A stretch of DNA of 41,858 nt, from assembly GCA_043824525.1 (NCBI GenBank), contig JBDRST010000028.1:1-41858 (forward strand). The letters run 5' to 3'. The translations under genes and the position numbers were made by a program. A model generated the notes under the pieces. That model was not told the DNA's origin. It was given only the letters and a program-made list of their open reading frames with translations, and did not search any database. Shown one piece after another: positions 7,400 through 41,454 of the stretch. Within the stretch, counting starts at the first letter, position 1. Each line of letters opens with the position of its first letter. This DNA is from a bacterium (lineage in GTDB: Bacteria > Patescibacteriota > Minisyncoccia > Minisyncoccales > Staskawiczbacteraceae).

Positions 7400-7707
7400 C
7401 TTGTCCTTTAACAAAGGAGAGACGCTATGGATGGAATTTTTCAACCCGCGAGAAGAATACTCACAGAAAACCAGCTGTTTAAGATGGTTAACAGAATTTG
7501 TTTGAGCTATGTTGAGATGCAAGCCCTTAGGTAGCATTGCGGGCTTCCCTGTGACGAAACAGCCGTTTGTCAGGATTTGATTTCTGACAGAACAGCTGTT
7601 GTTATGGCATTCCAAAAAATAAGGGGTAATCCCTGCCATCATTGATGCCACTCTTCGCAATGTTGCCGTGCGGTCAGTTTGCCACCGGTTAACGGTGGCC
7701 TTTTTTT
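7400..7707 (+). ncRNA. GC-richer cassette: 35-codon ORF (7427-7534) plus a ~125-nt multi-stem region closed by CATTGCG/CGCAATG, ending in a strong terminator; candidate small RNA or peptide locus
   Basis: Nested hairpins AACAGC..TGTCAG-loop-CTGACA..GCTGTT and ATGGCA..TGCCAT. The closing stem pairs 7535-7541 with 7655-7661. The terminator T run is on the + strand only. Confidence 0.3.
7681..7707 (+). terminator. Rho-independent terminator
   Basis: GCCACCG-GTTAA-CGGTGGC stem, then C and T7. Confidence 0.75.
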
Positions 7708-7727
7708 AAAACAATACTTACATACTA

Positions 7728-7756
7728 TTGAAATTATCTATTGGAAAGAGTATAAT
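7728..7756 (+). promoter_or_regulatory. Sigma70-like promoter (TTGAAA-17-TATAAT) about 220 nt upstream of greA
   Basis: Hexamers at 7728-7733 and 7751-7756, with a 17-nt spacer. Confidence 0.5.
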
Positions 7757-7811
7757 GTAAAAATCCTGATAATTTTAAAAAATAATACAGCTTGAAAATT
7801 CGGTTGATAAA

Positions 7812-7855
7812 GTCAAATTTTCACTACCCGGGATGATAGGTAGTGAAAATTTGAC
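7812..7855. repeat. Family-B hairpin (17-bp perfect stem GTCAAATTTTCACTACC / GGTAGTGAAAATTTGAC)
   Basis: Read directly from the sequence. Related half-sites occur at 7955-7971 and 10246-10328. Confidence 0.7.
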
Positions 7856-9166: not shown

Positions 9167-9204
9167 TTATACTTATTGTATAATAAGCGAATAAAATGAG
9201 CTTA

Positions 9205-9266
9205 CCCCGCCCTCTATGCTGTAAGTTTTTTTCTGAGAACACGGACATAGAGCTTAGAGGGCGGGG
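9205..9266. repeat. Family-C inverted-repeat element (CCCCGCCCTCTATGC...GCTTAGAGGGCGGGG)
   Basis: It shares termini, including the GGGGTGCTC flank, with 13693-13789. It ends 15 nt before the ATG at 9282. Confidence 0.65.
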
Positions 9267-9281
9267 TGCTCGCAAACTCGC

Positions 9282-9926: not shown

Positions 9927-10245
9927 TGACGACGGATTTTTACAGATTCCGCCAGCTGGCGGATAACGGATTTTCACAGATCACTCCTACGCTCCTACGC
10001 GTAGGAGCGTAGGAGTGGCGTCGTTGCTATCCAGCAGGCGAAGCAATCTCCGTTCCGTGTCATTCCTGCGCTTTGCCATCCCGCAGCTTTAGCGGAAGAT
10101 GGAAAGCGGGAATTTATAAGACATTAATTCATACTTTTCAATCGATTTTTGATGAAAATAAAAAGCAAGGAAAATTTTTCTGCGTAGATCCGCGTTATGT
10201 TCAGCGTGTTTCCGCTTCTACAAATATGAAAAATCAGGAATTAGC
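9927..10245. repeat. Mosaic of several unrelated short palindromes, including a 34-nt perfect palindrome at 9983-10016
   Basis: Components: ACGGATTTT(T)ACAGAT x2, CCGCCAGCTGGCGG, ACTCCTACGCTCCTACG|CGTAGGAGCGTAGGAGT, and a CCTGCGCTTTGCCATCCCGCAGCTTTAGCGG...GGAAAGCGGGA unit. Confidence 0.6.
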
Positions 10246-13677: not shown

Positions 13678-13692
13678 ACGAAGTAATGAGCA

Positions 13693-13789
13693 CCCCGCCC
13701 TCTAAGCCGATTGTTTAAAGGTAGGGTGAACAATTTTACCTTATAATTTAATATTTCCCCTGCCCGGATATTTAGCATAGAGGGCGGGG
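13693..13789. repeat. Family-C inverted-repeat element between rpmI and rplT
   Basis: CCCCGCCCTCTAAGC...GCATAGAGGGCGGGG. It is reverse-oriented relative to the 9205 copy, so both face their downstream gene the same way. Confidence 0.65.
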
Positions 13790-13796
13790 TTTTCGC

Positions 13797-15433: not shown

Positions 15434-15907
15434 CTATTCGGATAATTCTCTGTTTACCTCGCGTTCAGCATCTCTTTTCTTAATTTTCTCTTTTTTGTCG
15501 TACTTCTTTTTTCCTTTGGCTAACCCGAATTCAAGCTTAATCCTACCATGTTTATCATAAATTTTCAAGGGGATTAAGGAAAATCCCTTTTGAGCTGACT
15601 TTCCAACCAAATAATCTATTTCTTTTTTATTTAAAAGAAGCTTTCTTTCCCTACTCTCATTATAGTCAGCTCCTGCATTATTTGGTTGATATGGAGGTAC
15701 CCTTACTCCTGTTAAATACGGCTCCACCTTGCCCGCAGAAGCTTTAGCGGAGGAGGGGGCCTTTAGCGTAACATAAGAACCGCTCAGGTTTATATGTCCT
15801 GTTTTTATTGACTTTACTTCCTGCCCAAACAAAACAATCCCTGCCTCAAATTTTTCCAGGATATTATAGTCAAAATATCCCTTCTTATTTTCCGAATATA
15901 TTTTCAT
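15434..15907 (-). CDS. smpB: SsrA-binding protein SmpB
   Basis: NKKGYFDYNILEKFEAGIVLFGQEVKSIK...PYQ...RERKLLLNKKEI...G.SLIPLKIY. The ATG at 15907 is preferred over 15931. Confidence 0.85.
   Translation of the reverse strand: MKIYSENKKGYFDYNILEKFEAGIVLFGQEVKSIKTGHINLSGSYVTLKAPSSAKASAGKVEPYLTGVRVPPYQPNNAGADYNESRERKLLLNKKEIDYLVGKSAQKGFSLIPLKIYDKHGRIKLEFGLAKGKKKYDKKEKIKKRDAEREVNRELSE
15727..15757. repeat. Family-E element in frame in smpB
   Basis: The minus strand reads CCCTCCTCCGCTAAAGCTTCTGCGGGCAAGG, near-identical to 16474-16505, and encodes PSSAKASAGK. Confidence 0.6.
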
Positions 15908-15943
15908 AGTTTTATGGTACCATACTAACATTTTTATTTAACG

Positions 15944-15972
15944 TTGACAAGATATTTTTAGTATGCTAATAT
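15944..15972 (+). promoter_or_regulatory. Sigma70-like promoter TTGACA-17-TAATAT
   Basis: Hexamers at 15944-15949 and 15967-15972, 45 nt upstream of the ATG at 16017. Confidence 0.55.
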
Positions 15973-16016
15973 TTATATAGTTTTTTTAACCGCACACATC
16001 GTCGGAGGTAAAAGCC

Positions 16017-16394
16017 ATGCCAGTGTTAATCGTCTATGGGGTACCCAGTAATGTGGGGCGAGACAAGCTTGAAAGCCTAATCAATGTGCTACGGCACGAG
16101 GTCGGCTCTATGCCGACATTGTCTCCGGAAGCAGTTTCGGTTTTCTTCCCTGCGGACCTAGTGGAAGTAGGGCTTGGGGAAGAGCTTGTGTGCCTCGTTC
16201 AAGGGCTATTTGAAAATCCCAAGCGGACAACTGAGTTTCGAAGGCATCTTGCAGAAGCCATCCTCGTCTTTCTCAGCTATTTTGCCCGTTGTCATTTGTC
16301 TCAATGTAAGAAAGTCGAAGTGTTTGTGAATCGCTTCAACCAAGACATTGATGGCTTTATGGCATGCAATCCGTACGAGCAGGAACAGGCCTAG
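16017..16394 (+). CDS. GC-richer hypothetical protein; possibly tautomerase-superfamily (Pro-1, DUF1904-like) fold
   Basis: GGAGG SD. The N-terminal MPVLIVYG... suggests two beta-alpha-beta halves. Family assignment is by resemblance only. Confidence 0.35.
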   Translation: MPVLIVYGVPSNVGRDKLESLINVLRHEVGSMPTLSPEAVSVFFPADLVEVGLGEELVCLVQGLFENPKRTTEFRRHLAEAILVFLSYFARCHLSQCKKVEVFVNRFNQDIDGFMACNPYEQEQA

Positions 16395-16415
16395 GCTTCG
16401 GCTTACGGCAACAGG

Positions 16416-16450
16416 GTCCCGACAGATTCAGCTGATCGGGGCTTTTTTTT
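16416..16450 (+). terminator. Rho-independent terminator
   Basis: GTCCCGACAG pairs with CTGATCGGGGC and is followed by T8. Confidence 0.65.
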
Positions 16451-16461
16451 GCTTCATTTTG

Positions 16462-16517
16462 AACACCTCAACCCTCCTTCGCTAAAGCTTCGGCGAGGCA
16501 AGGCGCGTTGAGGTGTT
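16462..16517. repeat. Nested repeat: family-E core CCCTCCTTCGCTAAAGCTTCGGCGAGGCAAGG inside an AACACCTCAAC/GTTGAGGTGTT inverted repeat
   Basis: Read directly from the sequence. Confidence 0.6.
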
Positions 16518-16570
16518 TGTTTTATACTTAAAAGCTTTAATTTTTAGGTAAAACAAGCTAAACTTGATAT

Positions 16571-17344
16571 ATGCCGTATAGAAAGGAACAGTTTGCAAAT
16601 GGCGAAACATACCACGTTATTTTAAGGGCGCTAGATGACAATCTGGTATTCAAAAATACTGATGATTACTATCGTGGTATCTTTTCTATTTACGAGCTTA
16701 ACAACGTCAATTCCGTCACTATTCAGAAAAGACGAGAAGCAAGAAGGCGTTTTAAAAGACTAACAAATGAGTTGGGTAGAGACCCGAGGTCTACTCAGCT
16801 GAGTAGACCTCGGGTCTCTACTGGCTTGCCTGAATTCGCGGATGAGCGGGATAAATTTGTGGAAGTTTTGGTATTTTGTTTTATGCCTAATCATATCCAT
16901 ATATTAGTAAGACAGATTAAAGATGGTGGTATCTCTAAATTTATGCAAAAAGTTGGAGGAGGTTATGGAAGATATTTTAATGATAAATATCTGCGCAAAG
17001 GACATGTTTTTCAAAACACATTTAGCGCGGTTCATATAAAAGACAACAATCAATTTATGATAGTTGTGCCGTATATTTTTACAAACCCTGTTGCCTTGAT
17101 TGAGCCTGGATGGAAAGAGCATGGAATAAGAAATCACTCTGCAAAGGAGGTTATAAAATTTTTGGAAGAGTATAAATGGTCAAGTTATCAAGATTGCATT
17201 AATATAAAGAATTTTCCCTCTGTAACAGAAAGAAATTTTCTATTGGAAGTCATGGGTGGCGAGCAAGGACTCAAGGACGCCATTGAAAATTGGATAAGAT
17301 ATAAAAAAGATTGGGGAGAATATGACAATTTATTTTTAGATTAA
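16571..17344 (+). mobile_element. IS200/IS605-type Y1 (HUH) transposase, RAYT-like (REP-associated tyrosine transposase)
   Basis: YHVILRA..., HUH motif MPNHIHILV, and a C-terminal helix with Y (VVPYIFTNPV). The same long palindrome lies inside and just 3' of the gene. Confidence 0.7.
16776..16821. repeat. REP-like 46-nt perfect palindrome inside the RAYT coding sequence
   Basis: GTAGAGACCCGAGGTCTACTCAG|CTGAGTAGACCTCGGGTCTCTAC. In frame it encodes GRDPRSTQLSRPRVST. Confidence 0.8.
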
Positions 17345-17347
17345 AAA

Positions 17348-17392
17348 GTAGAGACCCGAGGTCTACTTGTTCAGTAGACCTCGGGTCTCTAC
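17348..17392. repeat. REP-like hairpin (19-bp stem, same sequence) 4 nt after the RAYT stop
   Basis: GTAGAGACCCGAGGTCTAC-TTGTTCA-GTAGACCTCGGGTCTCTAC. Confidence 0.8.
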
Positions 17393-17400
17393 CAGCTTTT

Positions 17401-18201
17401 ATGAGGAAGGAGACAATTATAATTTCGTTAGGGGGCTCGCTGGTGGTTCCAAATGAAATTGATTTAGGATTTTTAAGGAATTTTAAACATTCCTTGGAAA
17501 AGTACTTGTCCCCCACTAACTTTGGGATGGGCAGGCAAGCAACAAAGAAAAGCGAAAATTCCCCAAAGTTAGTGGGGGATAAACGATTTTTTATTTTAGT
17601 TGGAGGGGGCAAGGTGGCAAGAAACTATCAAAAAGCACTTTTGGAGTTTGGGGCAAAGTCATCTGACAGGGATTGGATTGGGATAAATGTAACTATATTA
17701 AACGCAGAGGTTGTAAAAAATGTTTTTGGGCAGCGCTCTTATCCTAAAATTATTACAGATCCAAACAAAAAAGTTAAAACAACAAAGGATATTGTGGTGG
17801 GAGCTGGCTGGAAGCCCGGCTGGTCAACAGATTATGTGGCCGTAAAAATTGCCGAAACATACAACAAAAAAATCCCGACCCGCGGGTCGAGGATCCACGA
17901 TGCCCGCGACAGCGGTCGGGGCATCGGGACAATTATAAATCTTACTAACGTTGACTATGTTTATGATAAAAACCCAAATAACTTTCCCGACGCAAAACCA
18001 TTGAAGGAAGTTGACTGGAAAAGCTTTGAGCGCATTGTAGGAGATAAATGGAGCCCGGGCTTATCTATGCCCTTTGACCCGAGAGCTTCAAAGCTGGCAG
18101 CAAGGTTAAAATTAAAAGTAGCAATAATCAACGGAAAAAACCTTGAACGTTTAGAAGATTTTTTGAATAACAAATCGTTTGTAGGAACCATAATTCAGTG
18201 A
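17401..18201 (+). CDS. pyrH: UMP kinase, archaeal-type (amino acid kinase family)
   Basis: IISLGGSLV..., ILVGGGKVARNY and VGAGWKPGWSTDYVA blocks. Carries two in-frame palindromic insertions. Confidence 0.7.
   Translation: MRKETIIISLGGSLVVPNEIDLGFLRNFKHSLEKYLSPTNFGMGRQATKKSENSPKLVGDKRFFILVGGGKVARNYQKALLEFGAKSSDRDWIGINVTILNAEVVKNVFGQRSYPKIITDPNKKVKTTKDIVVGAGWKPGWSTDYVAVKIAETYNKKIPTRGSRIHDARDSGRGIGTIINLTNVDYVYDKNPNNFPDAKPLKEVDWKSFERIVGDKWSPGLSMPFDPRASKLAARLKLKVAIINGKNLERLEDFLNNKSFVGTIIQ
17509..17579. repeat. Family-D palindromic element in frame in pyrH
   Basis: An 18-bp perfect stem pairs TCCCCCACTAACTTTGGG with CCCAAAGTTAGTGGGGGA. It encodes SPTNFGMGRQATKKSENSPKLVGD. Confidence 0.8.
17873..17930. 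repeat. Family-A element in frame in pyrH
   Basis: TCCCGACCCGCGGGTCGAGGATCCACGATGCCCGCGACAGCGGTCGGGGCATCGGGAC encodes PTRGSRIHDARDSGRGIG. Confidence 0.65.
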
Positions 18202-19874
18202 AAGAGGAAATAAAAAAAATAATTGGAAAATCAATAAAAGAGCTTTTCAGCGAAGTTTTGGATTTTTCTGTTGAGATACCTTCAGAAAAAAATCACGGAG
18301 ATTATTCAACAAACGTTGCTTTGGTTTTATCAAAAAAAATCGGAAAAAATCCGAGAGAAGTCGCTAATTTAATAAAGGAAAAAATTGAGAAAAATAATTT
18401 ATTTAAAAAAACAGAAGTTGCGGGCCCAGGATTTATAAATTTCTTTCTTAAAGACGAAATTTTTATTAAAACTATAAGAAAAATTGATAAAAATTTTGGG
18501 AAGGGAAAGGAGTTAAAAAACCAAAAAATTATTTTAGATTACACCGACCCAAATATTTTAAAGGAATTTCATATCGGGCACTTAATGGGTAATGCAATCG
18601 GAGAATCATTATCCCGCATTTTTGAATTTCAGGGAGCTAAAGTAAAAAGAGTTTGCTATCAATCTGATGTCGGTCTTGGCGTAGCAAGGGCAGTTTGGGG
18701 CAAAATGAAAAATAGCAGTTTGAGCTGGGGCGAGGCGTATGCATTTGGGTATAAATCTTTTAAGGAAAACGAGAACGACAAAAAAGAAATAATTGAGCTT
18801 AATAAAAAAATATATGAGAGAAGCGACAACAATATAAATAAACTTTATGATGAAGGAAAAAAATGGAGCCTGGAGTATTTTGACAAAATTTATAAAAAGC
18901 TTGGCACAAAATTTGATTGGCTGATTTTTGAGAGCGAAACAGGAGAGCTTGGCAAAAAAATTGTTGAAAAAGGATTAAGGGATGGAATTTTTGAAAAAGG
19001 CCTGCCTGCGCAGGCAGGCGAAAAGGCACCAATTATTTTTAAGGGCGAAAAATACGGGCTTCATACAAGGGTGTTTATTAATTCTGAAGGACTGCCTACT
19101 TATGAAGCAAAAGACTTGGGGTTGGCTGAAACAAAATATAAAAAGTATAAGTACGACAAGTCTTTTATTGTAACCGGTAACGAAGTAAACGAATATTTTA
19201 AAGTAATGCTGGCTGCCATGAAGCAGGCTTTGCCAGAACTTGCTGAAAAAACAAAACATATCGGGCATGGAATGATGAGGCTGCCTGAAGGCAAGATGTC
19301 TTCAAGAACCGGGAGCGTAATAACAGCAGAATCTTTAATATTAAAAGTTGAAGAATTAGTTAACCAAAAGATTAAAGACAGAGAATTATCTGACGCGGAA
19401 AAACAGGAAATTTCAGAAAAGGTTGCAATCGGAGCCTTGAAATATTCAATTTTAAAGCAATCGATTGGTTCAGATATTGTTTATGATTTTAATAAATCAA
19501 TTTCTTTTGAAGGTGATTCAGGACCCTATTTACAATATTCATACGCCAGAGCTCAGTCGGTTTTAAGAAAAGCAAAAGACGAGGGCGTAAAATCCAGCTT
19601 TAAAAAACCGCCAGACGGGATTAGCCAGCTCGAAAAAATAATGCATTCTTTTCCGGACGCAGTTCTGCAGGCGAATAAAAATTACGAACCGCATATAATA
19701 GTTATGTATCTTACGGAATTGGCAAGCGAGTTTAACAGCTATTATGCAAAGAACAGGATTGTTGATAAAATAGATGAGTTTTCTTCATATAAAGTTGCGA
19801 TGACAAATGCATTTTCAATAATTATAAAAAATGGCCTATGGTTGTTAGGAATTAACACATTAGAAAAAATGTGA
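18198..19874 (+). CDS. argS: Arginine--tRNA ligase
   Basis: HIGH-type FHIGHLMGNAIG, MSSRTG (KMSK equivalent), and a C-terminal DALR-type anticodon-binding domain ending in M. Confidence 0.9.
   Translation: MKEEIKKIIGKSIKELFSEVLDFSVEIPSEKNHGDYSTNVALVLSKKIGKNPREVANLIKEKIEKNNLFKKTEVAGPGFINFFLKDEIFIKTIRKIDKNFGKGKELKNQKIILDYTDPNILKEFHIGHLMGNAIGESLSRIFEFQGAKVKRVCYQSDVGLGVARAVWGKMKNSSLSWGEAYAFGYKSFKENENDKKEIIELNKKIYERSDNNINKLYDEGKKWSLEYFDKIYKKLGTKFDWLIFESETGELGKKIVEKGLRDGIFEKGLPAQAGEKAPIIFKGEKYGLHTRVFINSEGLPTYEAKDLGLAETKYKKYKYDKSFIVTGNEVNEYFKVMLAAMKQALPELAEKTKHIGHGMMRLPEGKMSSRTGSVITAESLILKVEELVNQKIKDRELSDAEKQEISEKVAIGALKYSILKQSIGSDIVYDFNKSISFEGDSGPYLQYSYARAQSVLRKAKDEGVKSSFKKPPDGISQLEKIMHSFPDAVLQANKNYEPHIIVMYLTELASEFNSYYAKNRIVDKIDEFSSYKVAMTNAFSIIIKNGLWLLGINTLEKM
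19000..19019. repeat. 20-nt perfect GC palindrome GCCTGCCTGCGCAGGCAGGC in frame in argS
   Basis: Encodes LPAQAG within GLPAQAGEKAP. The GC-rich island contrasts with the surrounding AT-rich coding sequence. Confidence 0.55.
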
Positions 19875-20459: not shown

Positions 20460-23400
20460 ATGGCATATAATTTTCCTGAAGAGGAAAATAAAATTTTAAA
20501 ATTTTGGCAGGACAACAAGATTTTTGAAAAAACGCTTGAGAAAATCCCGAAGACAAAGTCGTCGTGGATCCTCGATGCCGATTTGATCGAGCATTCACGA
20601 CAAAGTCGGAATAAAATCGGGACAAAAGGCAAGCGCGCTTTTGTATTTTATGATGGGCCGCCTTTTGCAACAGGCCTTCCTCACTACGGACACATTTTAA
20701 GTTCTGTGGCAAAAGATGTTTTTCCAAGATATAAAACAATGCAGGGTTTTTTTGTAGCTCGCAGATGGGGCTGGGATTGTCATGGGCTTCCGATTGAAAA
20801 CATTGTTGAAAAAGAACTTGGGGTTTCTGGAAAAAAAGACATTGAAGCAAAAATTGGAGTAGAAAAATTTAACCAGACTTGCCGCTCAAAAGTTTTAACC
20901 TATACAAAAGAATGGGAAAAGATGGTGAATAAAATAGGAAGATTTGTTGATTTTGATAATTCATACAAAACAATGAGCTCTGCTTATATGGAGTCGGTTT
21001 GGTGGGCATTAAAAACATTGTGGGACAAAGGGTTAATTTATCAAGGCAAAAAAGTTTTGATGTATTGCCCAAGGTGCGAAACTCCAGTTTCAAAAGCCGA
21101 GGTTGCTATGGATAATAGTTATCAGGATGTTACAGAAGAGGCGGTTACAGTTAAGTTTAAAATAAAAAATCCTGAAAAAAATAATTTGCCTGAAAACACA
21201 TATATTTTAGCTTGGACTACAACTCCCTGGACATTACCAGGAAACGTTTCTTTAGCAGTTGGTGAAAAAATAAAATACGCCTTAGTTCAATCTAATGATG
21301 AAAATTATATTTTAGCTAAAGAAAAAGTGAAGGATGTTTTAAGGGATAAAGAGCATAGAACCACGAAAGAAATATCGGGGAAAGACTTACTTGGATTAGA
21401 ATATGAGCCACTTTATAAAATTGAAGAAGTGAAAAAAACAGGTAAAAAAGTTTGGTATGTTTTACCAGCTGATTTTGTAAACACAGAAGAGGGAACCGGA
21501 GTAGTTCACACAGCAGTAATTTACGGAGAAGATGATTATAATTTGGGAGTTAAGAACGATTTGCCAATGGTGCCTTTGTTAGACAGCAAAGGAATTTTTA
21601 ATGAAGATGCTCCTGATTTGATAAAAGGAAAGTATTTTAAAGACTCAGAAAAAGACATTAAAAATGATTTAGAAAAGAGAGGGCTTCTTTTTGATAAGCA
21701 TAGCAATACCCATCCTTACCCTTTTTGCTGGAGGTGTGGGACACAATTATTTTATAACGCTATTTCTGCTTGGTTTATAAATATCCAAAAACACAAGAAA
21801 AAAATTATAAAACTGAATGAAAAAATAAATTGGCATCCAGAGCATTTAAAGCACGGAAGATTTTTAAATATTTTAAAAGATGCTCCTGATTGGAATATAT
21901 CAAGGAACAGGTATTGGGCAACGCCATTGCCGTTTTTCAAATGCGAGTGCGGGCATACAGAATGCATCGGTTCTGTAAAAGAATTAAAGGAAAAAGCGGT
22001 TAATTTTAGCCAAGTTTACAGCTCAGATAAAATTGAGGATATGGATTTGCACAAAGACAAAATGGATAAAATTGAATTAAGGTGCGAAAAATGCGGTAAA
22101 AAAGCAAAAAGAATTCCAGAGGTTATTGATTGCTGGGTTGAGTCCTCGTCCATGCCGTATGCTGAGCTTCACTATCCTTTTGAAAACACGAGCGAATTTA
22201 AAAAAAGGCTGCCTGCCCAGTATATTGCAGAATATATTGCCCAAACAAGAACATGGTTTTATTATCTGCACGTTTTATCTGTTTTGCTGTTTGGCAAAAT
22301 TTCCTTTGAAAATGTCGTTTCTACTGGCACCGTTTTGAATGAAAAAGGAGAAAAGCTTTCAAAATCAAAACAAAACTTCACAGATCCCTGGATTATAATA
22401 AACCAATATGGAGCAGATGCTTTAAGGTTTTATTTAATGTCGAGTTCTGTAATGCAGTCAGAGGATTTATTTTTTAGCGACAGGGGTGTGAGAGAGAGTT
22501 ATAATAAAGTTATAAATACGCTATCTAATGTTGCGGAATTTTATACAATGTACGCGTCAGAAAACTCAGGCAGTATAAAAATAAATCCGACAAATATTTT
22601 AGATAAGTGGATATTGAGCAGGTTAAACGGCGCCATCTTTGAACTGACTGTTTCAATGGATAAATACGATACTGTAAAGTCTTGCAGAATTATTAAAAAT
22701 TTTATTGAGGAGCTGTCTTTGTGGTATATTAGAAGGTCAAGAGAAAGATTTAAAGAAGATGGCTCGTCCCCCACTAACTTCAAATTAAAAGCAGAAGAAC
22801 AAGGAATGAACTCGAAGTCGGATTTGAAGTTAGTGGGGGATAAAGATAAAAACCAAGCTGGAGCTGTTTTAAGATTAGTGCTGTTAGAGCTTTCAAAAGC
22901 GATAGCTCCCATTTTGCCTTTTACCGCAGAGTATGTTTTTGAAAAAGTAAGGGGCGCGGATAACGCAGAATCAGTGCATTTAGAAGATTGGCCTAAGCAC
23001 AATAAAAAATTTATTAACAAAGACCTTGACGGAAAAATGGACGAGGTAAGAAAAATTGTTAGTTTGTCTTTAGCAGAAAGAGTTTTAAATGGTTTGAAAA
23101 TAAGACAGCCATTAAATAACTTAAAAATCAAAAACGAAAAATCAAAAATTAAGGACGAAAAAGAATTGCTTGTTTTAGTAAAAGACGAGGTGAATGTTAA
23201 AAATATTGATTTTGATGCAAGCATAGAAAAAGAAGTTGAACTTGATGCTAATCTCACAGAGGAGTTAAAGGAGGAAGGCATAATAAGAGAAATAATTAGG
23301 CAAGTACAGGGTGAAAGAAAAAAACAGGGACTGGTACCCCAAGATAAAATTTCTGTAATTATTGCTGGAGATAAATATGTTGTAGATCTAATAGAAAAAA

Positions 23401-23495
23401 ATAAAGATTTTTTACTGAAAACATTCAGAGCAACAGAGATTATCACAGAAAAAGAGGAGGGTGTAAAATTATCTATAGTTATTAAAAAAGTATAA
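20460..23495 (+). CDS. ileS: Isoleucine--tRNA ligase
   Basis: PPFATGLPHYGHIL (HIGH), WDCHGLP, KLSKSK (KMSKS) and zinc-binding CxxC pairs. Carries two in-frame palindromic insertions. Confidence 0.9.
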   Translation: MAYNFPEEENKILKFWQDNKIFEKTLEKIPKTKSSWILDADLIEHSRQSRNKIGTKGKRAFVFYDGPPFATGLPHYGHILSSVAKDVFPRYKTMQGFFVARRWGWDCHGLPIENIVEKELGVSGKKDIEAKIGVEKFNQTCRSKVLTYTKEWEKMVNKIGRFVDFDNSYKTMSSAYMESVWWALKTLWDKGLIYQGKKVLMYCPRCETPVSKAEVAMDNSYQDVTEEAVTVKFKIKNPEKNNLPENTYILAWTTTPWTLPGNVSLAVGEKIKYALVQSNDENYILAKEKVKDVLRDKEHRTTKEISGKDLLGLEYEPLYKIEEVKKTGKKVWYVLPADFVNTEEGTGVVHTAVIYGEDDYNLGVKNDLPMVPLLDSKGIFNEDAPDLIKGKYFKDSEKDIKNDLEKRGLLFDKHSNTHPYPFCWRCGTQLFYNAISAWFINIQKHKKKIIKLNEKINWHPEHLKHGRFLNILKDAPDWNISRNRYWATPLPFFKCECGHTECIGSVKELKEKAVNFSQVYSSDKIEDMDLHKDKMDKIELRCEKCGKKAKRIPEVIDCWVESSSMPYAELHYPFENTSEFKKRLPAQYIAEYIAQTRTWFYYLHVLSVLLFGKISFENVVSTGTVLNEKGEKLSKSKQNFTDPWIIINQYGADALRFYLMSSSVMQSEDLFFSDRGVRESYNKVINTLSNVAEFYTMYASENSGSIKINPTNILDKWILSRLNGAIFELTVSMDKYDTVKSCRIIKNFIEELSLWYIRRSRERFKEDGSSPTNFKLKAEEQGMNSKSDLKLVGDKDKNQAGAVLRLVLLELSKAIAPILPFTAEYVFEKVRGADNAESVHLEDWPKHNKKFINKDLDGKMDEVRKIVSLSLAERVLNGLKIRQPLNNLKIKNEKSKIKDEKELLVLVKDEVNVKNIDFDASIEKEVELDANLTEELKEEGIIREIIRQVQGERKKQGLVPQDKISVIIAGDKYVVDLIEKNKDFLLKTFRATEIITEKEEGVKLSIVIKKV
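20545..20623. repeat. Family-A long-form element in frame near the ileS N-terminus
   Basis: TCCCGAAGACAAAGTCGTCGTGGATCCTCGATGCCGATTTGATCGAGCATTCACGACAAAGTCGGAATAAAATCGGGAC encodes PKTKSSWILDADLIEHSRQSRNKIG. Confidence 0.7.
22767..22840. repeat. Family-D palindromic element in frame in ileS
   Basis: A 19-bp perfect stem pairs TCCCCCACTAACTTCAAAT with ATTTGAAGTTAGTGGGGGA. It encodes SPTNFKLKAEEQGMNSKSDLKLVGD. Confidence 0.8.
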
Positions 23496-41408: not shown

Positions 41409-41454
41409 TCTAAATACGTTAAATTCTGCTATAGCAGAATTTAACGTATTTAGA
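41409..41454. promoter_or_regulatory. 46-nt perfect palindrome (23+23) upstream of the PaaX-like gene; operator or bidirectional terminator candidate
   Basis: TCTAAATACGTTAAATTCTGCTA|TAGCAGAATTTAACGTATTTAGA. Confidence 0.5.

Follow-up and report, generated by a model that had tools for sequence, protein, structure and literature searches.

The DNA analyzed here, called the window throughout, is the 41,858-nucleotide (nt) contig JBDRST010000028.1 (assembly GCA_043824525.1) from a member of the Staskawiczbacteraceae, phylum Patescibacteriota. At positions 16,571 to 17,344 it encodes a protein resembling the transposases associated with repetitive extragenic palindromes (REPs), known as RAYTs, and this gene carries a perfect palindrome within its own reading frame and a second copy of the same hairpin just after its stop codon. 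Comparison with homologous genes indicates that such an arrangement is characteristic of the family, since most of its members have a hairpin at the same place in the gene and most loci have the same hairpin three times: upstream of the ATG, inside the gene and after the stop. We hold, with moderate confidence, that gene and hairpins probably constitute a REPtron-like unit belonging to a Patescibacteria-specific clade of RAYT-like HUH/Y1 enzymes, in which the hairpin would be the cognate single-stranded DNA element of the enzyme, its copies would be kept matched, and the internal one would be tolerated.

The gene and its catalytic motifs are located as follows.

Positions 16,571 to 17,344, forward strand: intact RAYT-like class 2 TnpAY1 (HUH/Y1) gene, identified from its open reading frame (ORF), the Pfam Y1_Tnp match, its homologues and an AlphaFold2 model.

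Positions 16,892 to 16,900, forward strand: HuH motif H108-I-H110, inside MPNHIHILV on strand β3 (modelled strand 108–115), invariant in the alignment.

Positions 17,072 to 17,089, forward strand: catalytic Tyr motif Y168-I-F-T-N-P (the Y---NP signature) on helix αD (modelled helix 159–176), also invariant.

The ORF starts with ATG, ends with TAA (17,342–17,344) and encodes 257 residues. Its product matches Pfam Y1_Tnp (PF01797) with an E value of 2.3e-9 and 37.9 bits, against a cut-off of 23, the match being confined to residues 94–169. In an alignment with 36 homologues, H108, H110, Y168, N172 and P173 are all invariant, as is the W203-S204 motif of the tail. The AlphaFold2 model (mean predicted local distance difference test, pLDDT, of 75.6) shows the order β1 (13–20), αA (30–43), αB (51–67), an unstructured stretch (68–96), β2 (97–104), β3 with the HuH motif (108–115), αC, β4, αD with the Tyr (159–176) and a helical tail. 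A search of the PDB by sequence returned nothing at E values up to 1, and a search by structure with Foldseek placed first 4ER8, the E. coli TnpAREP bound to a REP hairpin (E 2.4e-6), followed by the IS608 and ISDra2 TnpA structures (2VJV, 2XMA). A HuH motif on a β strand, a Tyr on a C-terminal helix and a profile score above the curated cut-off are what the HUH/Y1 superfamily calls for, and the proposal made in an earlier, sequence-only reading of this DNA, that the ORF encodes a RAYT-like Y1/HUH enzyme, is thus corroborated by profile, motifs and structural match. In the published classification of TnpAY1 proteins, class 2 is characterized by Y---NP and class 1, which includes IS200, by Y---Q (Quentin 2018, PMC6006769). 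Because of its Y---NP motif, the 257-residue protein is a class 2 TnpAY1 (TnpAREP-like) and not a member of the IS200 group. The search for homologues yielded 1544 at E values up to 1e-3, and every named one comes from Patescibacteria; among plasmids and phages no close relative was found, the best identity being 33% in matches that were only partial. An element behaving like an insertion sequence (IS) was also considered, and was ruled out by the divergence of the paralogues described below together with this lack of close plasmid or phage relatives.

Three hairpins have to be considered around this gene.

Positions 16,776 to 16,821, no strand assigned: perfect palindrome of 46 nt in frame, coding for residues 69–84 (GRDPRSTQLSRPRVST), identified by palindrome scan, folding and arms shared with the orthologue (L002/L086/L087).

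Positions 17,348 to 17,392, no strand assigned: cognate 3′ hairpin with perfect 20-nt arms and a 5-nt loop, beginning 3 nt past the TAA stop and terminator-like in both directions.

Positions 16,414 to 16,450, forward strand: terminator-like hairpin GGGTCCCGACAGATTCAGCTGATCGGGGC followed by T8 after the upstream ORF, listed tentatively.

The internal palindrome consists of two perfect 23-nt arms and is translated in frame. The 19-mer GTAGAGACCCGAGGTCTAC occurs four times, in both arms of the internal and of the 3′ hairpin (0.00 occurrences are expected from 100 shuffles), and is absent from the rest of the window even when three mismatches are allowed. Both structures had been pointed out in the sequence-only reading as one and the same element; both exist as described, and the shared 19-mer arms vindicate their equation. 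Each consists of two inverted copies of the unit GTAGAGA-CCCGA-GGTCTAC, in this sense being REPIN-like, and folds stably as single-stranded DNA, with −24.9 kcal/mol (z −9.1) for the internal and −23.7 kcal/mol (z −10.7) for the 3′ hairpin. As to the foot sequence, the window element opens with GTAG and closes with CTAC, both lying within the stem, and other members of the family have GCGG, ACAG, GATAG or TGTG. The same combination of internal and 3′ hairpins is found in independent assemblies (L001, L002, L086 and L087), so that the in-frame arrangement is no assembly artefact. In another independent assembly, a recorded product of 153 residues (P0067), encoded on a 941-bp contig, is 100% identical to residues 105–257 of the window protein; in this assembly a break seems to have occurred at the internal palindrome or close to it, and M105 was taken as the start of the gene. 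On the reverse strand, an ORF of 113 residues (17,271–17,612) spans the 3′ hairpin, which it reads as GRDPRSTEQVDLGS, and reaches into the gene that follows; in all likelihood it is spurious.

By eye, the hairpin at 16,414–16,450 has CCCGA...TCAGCTGA...TCGGG in common with the internal palindrome, of which it may represent a decayed copy on the upstream side. Its fold is weak (−7.2 kcal/mol, z −2.4) and its MAFFT alignment with the palindrome is unconvincing. Among the other hairpins of the window with a CCCGA or TCGGG loop none is related, and an Rfam scan of positions 15,900–17,900 at a permissive E value gave only sub-threshold microRNA and small-RNA noise on the hairpins.

The significance of the internal copy becomes apparent from its position in the protein, in the following segment.

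Positions 16,772 to 16,858, forward strand: αB–β2 linker, residues 68–96, predicted to be disordered from pLDDT and alignments, with a length of 5–38 residues across the family.

The palindrome had been placed directly before the HuH strand, and in the model it does fall in this αB–β2 linker, with pLDDT below 50 over residues 71–89, a stretch that covers the palindrome-coded peptide; when the proteins are aligned, the stretch from K62 to D91 turns out to be a linker whose length is hypervariable. The identical arms of the internal and downstream copies could be taken, as they were in the sequence-only reading, for the trace of a recent event in this genome: either the reading frame took up a flanking REP, or the element inserted itself into the gene for its own transposase. 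The segment also looks like an insertion with respect to the canonical RAYT/IS200 profiles, the Pfam and NCBIfam matches beginning only at residues 93–94, and most homologues have singlets, which are shorter than doublets of the window type. These possibilities were confronted with relatives of the window gene, of which a scan of GTDB species representatives yielded 203; 79 loci were examined, together with loci from an exact protein look-up; the resulting hairpin survey comprises 85 homologous genes from Patescibacteria metagenome-assembled genomes (MAGs).

The K62–D91 linker, which represents 8.8% of the gene length, holds the center of the gene's strongest hairpin in 68 of the 85 genes (binomial P about 1e-55). 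A strict filter (GC-rich, at most one mismatch) recovers internal hairpins in only 48–49 of the 85, and the gene-wide and relic analyses find more. Thus, among 27 genes that have a flank hairpin and no intact internal one, 19 keep a linker sequence that matches the flank, with 0–7 mismatches to their own flank hairpin and better than control windows from the same gene. Altogether, a hairpin or a recognizable relic of it is present at the αB–β2 linker in about 80% of the genes. Its phase is also fixed: 37 of 43 hairpins have the second base of a codon at their center, which gives peptides such as RDPVS, GDRVS, GGPSS or REQFS. The shortest linkers, of 7–8 residues, are coded entirely by the hairpin, and the median linker has 16 residues with a hairpin and 14 without. 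In most homologues the hairpin is single and of 17–33 nt, inverted doublets being found in the window, L002, L003, L006 and L065.

Therefore, the earlier idea of a local capture or self-insertion does not hold: site and codon phase are shared by about four fifths of the genes, the architecture persists at 38–42% protein identity (L040_194, L024_2690), an orthologue 76–77% identical has the same arms at both positions, and minimal linkers are made of the hairpin alone. We regard a recent event as very improbable. The homologue alignment, proposed at the time as a check, reveals that relatives do have a segment at that position, which is conserved as a hairpin and not as a peptide. As the hairpin is not a local acquisition, the locus does not show directly, as had been hoped, by what route this genome comes to have in-frame elements. 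Rather, the recurrence of the same site and phase across homologues points to an ancestral, clade-wide feature, locked in site and codon phase, and not to an event in this genome.

The flanking copies obey a similar regularity. In most loci the upstream copies end 5–40 nt before the ATG, and the downstream copies start 0–50 nt past the stop. In the 48 genes whose internal hairpin is clean and GC-rich, this hairpin has a 9-mer in common with an upstream hairpin in 33, with a downstream one in 36, and with each of the two in 27, the cross-genome control for 9-mer sharing being 5.5%. Where upstream and downstream hairpins match (36 loci), they are inverted with respect to each other in 23 and direct in 10, a bias shared with REPtrons. 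The internal hairpin can lie either way round, with CCCG or CGGG on the sense strand. The existence of a defined excision unit, in which the internal copy would be oriented to one flank, was rejected, because it has the same orientation as the upstream copy in 14 cases and the inverted one in 18, and relative to the downstream copy the figures are 19 and 14. When hairpins are aligned by their centers, a family-wide inner core emerges (GAG-R-N-C-N-G-N-Y-CTC), and the outer stem positions vary across lineages yet remain Watson–Crick paired.

Since the flanking copies hug the ATG and the stop, one might think of a role at the RNA level, in which three stem-loops per transcript would throttle or stabilize the mRNA, for instance by blocking translation, providing a site for RNase III or causing termination. 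The likeness of the hairpins would then reflect a single RNA-binding partner, possibly the protein itself, in a way that resembles the mRNA hairpins repressing the IS200 transposase. A perfect stem of 23 bp is sufficiently long for RNase III, and the 3′ hairpin of the window is scored as an intrinsic terminator whichever strand is read; moreover, REPs are known to act as elements of 3′ untranslated regions. However, an RNA function would hardly explain that the internal hairpin is found in either orientation, that the flanking copies are mostly inverted with respect to one another, or that cognate copies dispersed in the genomes of homologues occupy either strand of other genes (several being in frame, for example in a Wzy_C gene, L006, and a radical-SAM gene, L003). 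Conservation concerns a palindromic core of the DNA, the same on both strands, and no Rfam family matches. A role at the RNA level thus appears unlikely.

A further line of evidence comes from the joint divergence of hairpin and protein. Mismatches in the central 15 nt increase from 2–3 at 70–90% protein identity to about 7 at 30–50%, and paralogues of one genome, 44–77% identical, carry different hairpins. Single MAGs have 4–5 divergent paralogues (L008, L010, L012 and L028 in JBBTVU01; L024, L032, L045, L068 and L069 in CAYIJU01), and the differences between comparable hairpins of these paralogues suggest several enzyme–hairpin specificities within one small genome. At closer range, the window gene and its orthologue (L002/L086/L087) encode proteins 76–77% identical and agree at 58% of their four-fold sites; between the window and L002, all four 19–20-nt arms are identical and all four loops are different. 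Arms are likewise unchanged in the pairs L011/L016 and L053/L075. In contrast, other pairs, whose relationship is as close or closer (L018/L019 and L002/L003), have switched stems, and the window and L006, an equally related pair, have quite different stems. From these comparisons of sequences, hairpin evolution is punctuated: stems are either maintained by selection, even where synonymous divergence is saturating, or exchanged all together, as would be expected if the protein reads the stem.

These same data bear on the notion that palindrome dynamics operate independently of any protein, so that a permissive loop hosts a functionless internal copy, template switching perfects the stems and short-range gene conversion homogenizes them. 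Loop-only inversions are a product of template switching, as in quasipalindrome mutagenesis. The decay of the internal copy in several lineages with intact flanks, as well as the disordered and hypervariable nature of the coded peptide, speak for this notion. Yet arms that stay unchanged in the internal and 3′ copies at 58% four-fold-site identity call for selection, or for a selected copy against which the others are corrected very often; in addition, the inner core is conserved family-wide, hairpins diverge along with the protein, and paralogues of one genome have different ones. We consequently assign a low probability to purely protein-independent dynamics.

The REPtron-like unit proposed at the outset can now be described as a mechanism. 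From the anatomy, conservation, co-variation and structural location of the hairpins, which can be observed directly, we infer protein binding and cleavage and the route by which the copies are matched. The enzyme would recognize the hairpin on single-stranded DNA, like E. coli TnpAREP with its REPs; selection on the match between protein and hairpin, together with copying between nearby copies (either enzyme-mediated replacement or local conversion), would keep all copies at one locus alike, and the peptide derived from the internal copy would merely be tolerated as part of a disordered surface loop. A bolder version, possible although rather doubtful, is that the in-frame hairpin is a working cis element and that the enzyme acts on its own coding DNA or mRNA, through a self-regulatory nicking or binding or by precisely cutting out the hairpin and replacing it. 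Precise replacement in place would explain why the three copies switch specificity together and why the frame is never broken.

A number of observations weigh against the proposal of a REPtron-like unit. The protein does not reach the threshold of the NCBIfam REP_Tyr_transpos equivalog (37 bits versus a cut-off of 80, over residues 93–174 only), and it does not retain the residues with which GTAG is read by E. coli TnpAREP (W94-Q95...E100-H101...R104), having F147-Q148 and no corresponding acidic/His pair or E/H/R pattern. The window locus lacks a clean upstream copy, only its 3′ flank being clean. The internal copy has decayed in some lineages despite intact flank hairpins, so it is not indispensable. 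The binding or cleavage of the hairpin by the window protein is putative, and perfect stems and loop flips could be produced by template switching during replication without any protein. Finally, the hairpins are hardly dispersed. The window hairpin has no further copy in the window, and its exact 19-mer appears in only two contigs of the Joint Genome Institute (JGI) metagenomes (241 million records), both corresponding to the orthologous RAYT locus with two palindromes 575 nt apart; the copy count that had been suggested thus gave a hairpin restricted to this locus and its orthologues. In the genomes of homologues, 12 cognate hairpins were found more than 300 nt away from any RAYT-like gene in 1.34 Mb, that is 0.9 per 100 kb, whereas the same motifs in other genomes give 0.03 per 100 kb. 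They are therefore real, but very sparse, repeats, at a density far short of classical REP abundance, and the high-copy dispersed repeats typical of RAYT/TnpAREP systems were seen neither in the window nor in the JGI metagenomes or the homologue loci. The densest dispersed set observed is that of L031, where three cognate hairpins (G[AT]CAGAGACCCGGTCTCTGTT) lie within 200 nt (7633–7832), about 2.2 kb upstream of the RAYT-like gene, and another one is found about 2.4 kb downstream of it.

The protein had also been nominated as a candidate mobilizer of a hairpin family. Because the homologue genomes hold sparse dispersed copies, this idea survives for its own hairpin, at the level of the family only; it does not extend to the other in-frame palindromes of the window, since the SPTNF...KLVGD elements and the GCCTGCCTGC palindrome share no sequence with the RAYT hairpin and nothing nominates the protein as their mobilizer. 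The former are two copies of an element resembling a miniature inverted-repeat transposable element, GTCCCCCACTAACTT...(35–36 nt)...AAGTTAGTGGGGGAT, at 17,506–17,582 and 22,767–22,840, both read in frame as SPTNF...KLVGD, the first in an AA_kinase-like ORF (17,401–18,201) and the second in an ORF of 1011 residues (20,460–23,495). A perfect GC-rich palindrome of 20 nt, GCCTGCCTGCGCAGGCAGGC, at 19,000–19,019, is in frame (GLPAQAGEK) in an arginyl-tRNA synthetase-like ORF (18,198–19,874), and a nearly identical one, GCCTGCCTGCCGGCAGGCAGGC, lies upstream of the RAYT-like gene of L028. Two intergenic inverted repeats, 9204–9267 and 13,692–13,790, have the arms ACCCCGCCCTCTA[AT]GC / GC[AT]TAGAGGGCGGGGT with different spacers and make up a separate repeat family. 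The window also contains a perfect palindrome of 36 nt at 9982–10,017 (CACTCCTACGCTCCTACG|CGTAGGAGCGTAGGAGTG), an AT-rich perfect palindrome of 46 nt at 41,409–41,454 and, just upstream of the RAYT-like gene, an inverted repeat with 18-nt arms (16,462–16,517). The other GC-rich palindromes of the window belong to families unrelated to the RAYT hairpin.

RAYTs are widespread domesticated HUH nucleases whose cellular role and co-evolution with REPs are at issue, and in this Patescibacteria clade the enzyme and up to three cognate hairpins are assembled within about 1 kb, one of them phase-locked in the ORF. If the enzyme acts on the hairpins, the clade would offer a small testable system for the switching of RAYT–REP specificity and for precise in-frame hairpin exchange; should the in-frame hairpin be, in addition, a working cis element, the clade would represent a natural compact reporter of RAYT activity. 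There are also consequences for annotation, as GC-rich palindromes break assemblies and gene calls, the 153-residue product called from M105 being an example, and hypervariable “linkers” can be dictated by DNA structure and not by protein function.

Among known systems, the REPtrons of TnpAREP/RAYT proteins (E. coli YafM, 4ER8; Nunvar 2010, Ton-Hoang 2012, Messing 2012) share with the present one the HUH/Y1 fold with Y---NP, a W-S-S-type motif in the proximal tail, GC-rich cognate hairpins that flank the gene, mostly in inverted orientation, and divergent paralogues each with its own hairpin, so that hairpin and protein co-diverge. The Patescibacteria protein differs in being longer (257 residues, with a helical tail of about 85) and in not conserving the GTAG-reading residues, the foot sequence being variable; furthermore, the hairpins are barely dispersed, a third copy is found inside the gene and the NCBIfam equivalog score stays below its cut-off. 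The IS200/IS605 TnpA proteins (IS608, ISDra2, IS200) have the same catalytic fold and hairpins at both gene ends, recognized on single-stranded DNA, and IS200 also has hairpins beside the ORF start. However, these class 1 elements are characterized by Y---Q, proteins of about 150 residues, near-identical multicopy elements and left-end and right-end hairpins on the same strand, often on plasmids, whereas here there is Y---NP, the paralogues are 44–77% identical and the flanks are mostly inverted, which sets the present family apart from them. As for the REPINs (Bertels and Rainey 2011), they resemble the window elements in that inverted REP-like doublets fold into one long hairpin, but they number tens to hundreds per genome, and the window element has two copies, both at the RAYT locus.

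The closest precedent for the internal copy is subclass 2.4 of TnpAY1, for which in-frame REPs within tnpAREP genes were reported as a “unique feature” (Quentin et al. 2018, PMC6006769). These insertions occupy a peripheral loop between HuH and Tyr (β3:αC), variable in length and sequence, and the proteins, from Cyanobacteria, Bacteroidetes and other phyla, have about 194 residues, a WQ motif and YIxNNP, and no C-terminal tail (PMC6006769). Here, too, a cognate REP lies inside the RAYT gene, in a variable peripheral loop and with the frame intact, and the “double-foot” GT[AG]G...C[TC]AC palindromes of the subclass resemble the GTAG...CTAC element of the window. Nevertheless, in the present family the hairpin precedes the HuH (αB:β2), with site and phase fixed across the clade, and the window protein, with FQ, YIFTNP, 257 residues and a helical tail, does not have the characters of the subclass. 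Intragenic REPs are listed by Di Nocera et al. 2013, and the Rickettsia palindromic elements (Ogata 2000, as cited there) are a related case. These have in common with our case palindromes that are translated in frame as part of the surface loops of functional proteins, but there they are scattered in unrelated genes, whereas here they occupy a conserved site in the gene of the presumed cognate enzyme. In view of Quentin et al. 2018, Di Nocera et al. 2013 and the Rickettsia elements, in-frame palindromes within genes, tnpAREP genes included, are, as a general phenomenon, already published; a search for literature on RAYTs or in-frame palindromes in Patescibacteria (the candidate phyla radiation, CPR) found nothing relevant. 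What distinguishes the system described here is the Patescibacteria clade in which it occurs, the αB:β2 loop that houses the internal copy, its fixed site and phase, the co-variation of the three copies and the near absence of dispersed ones.

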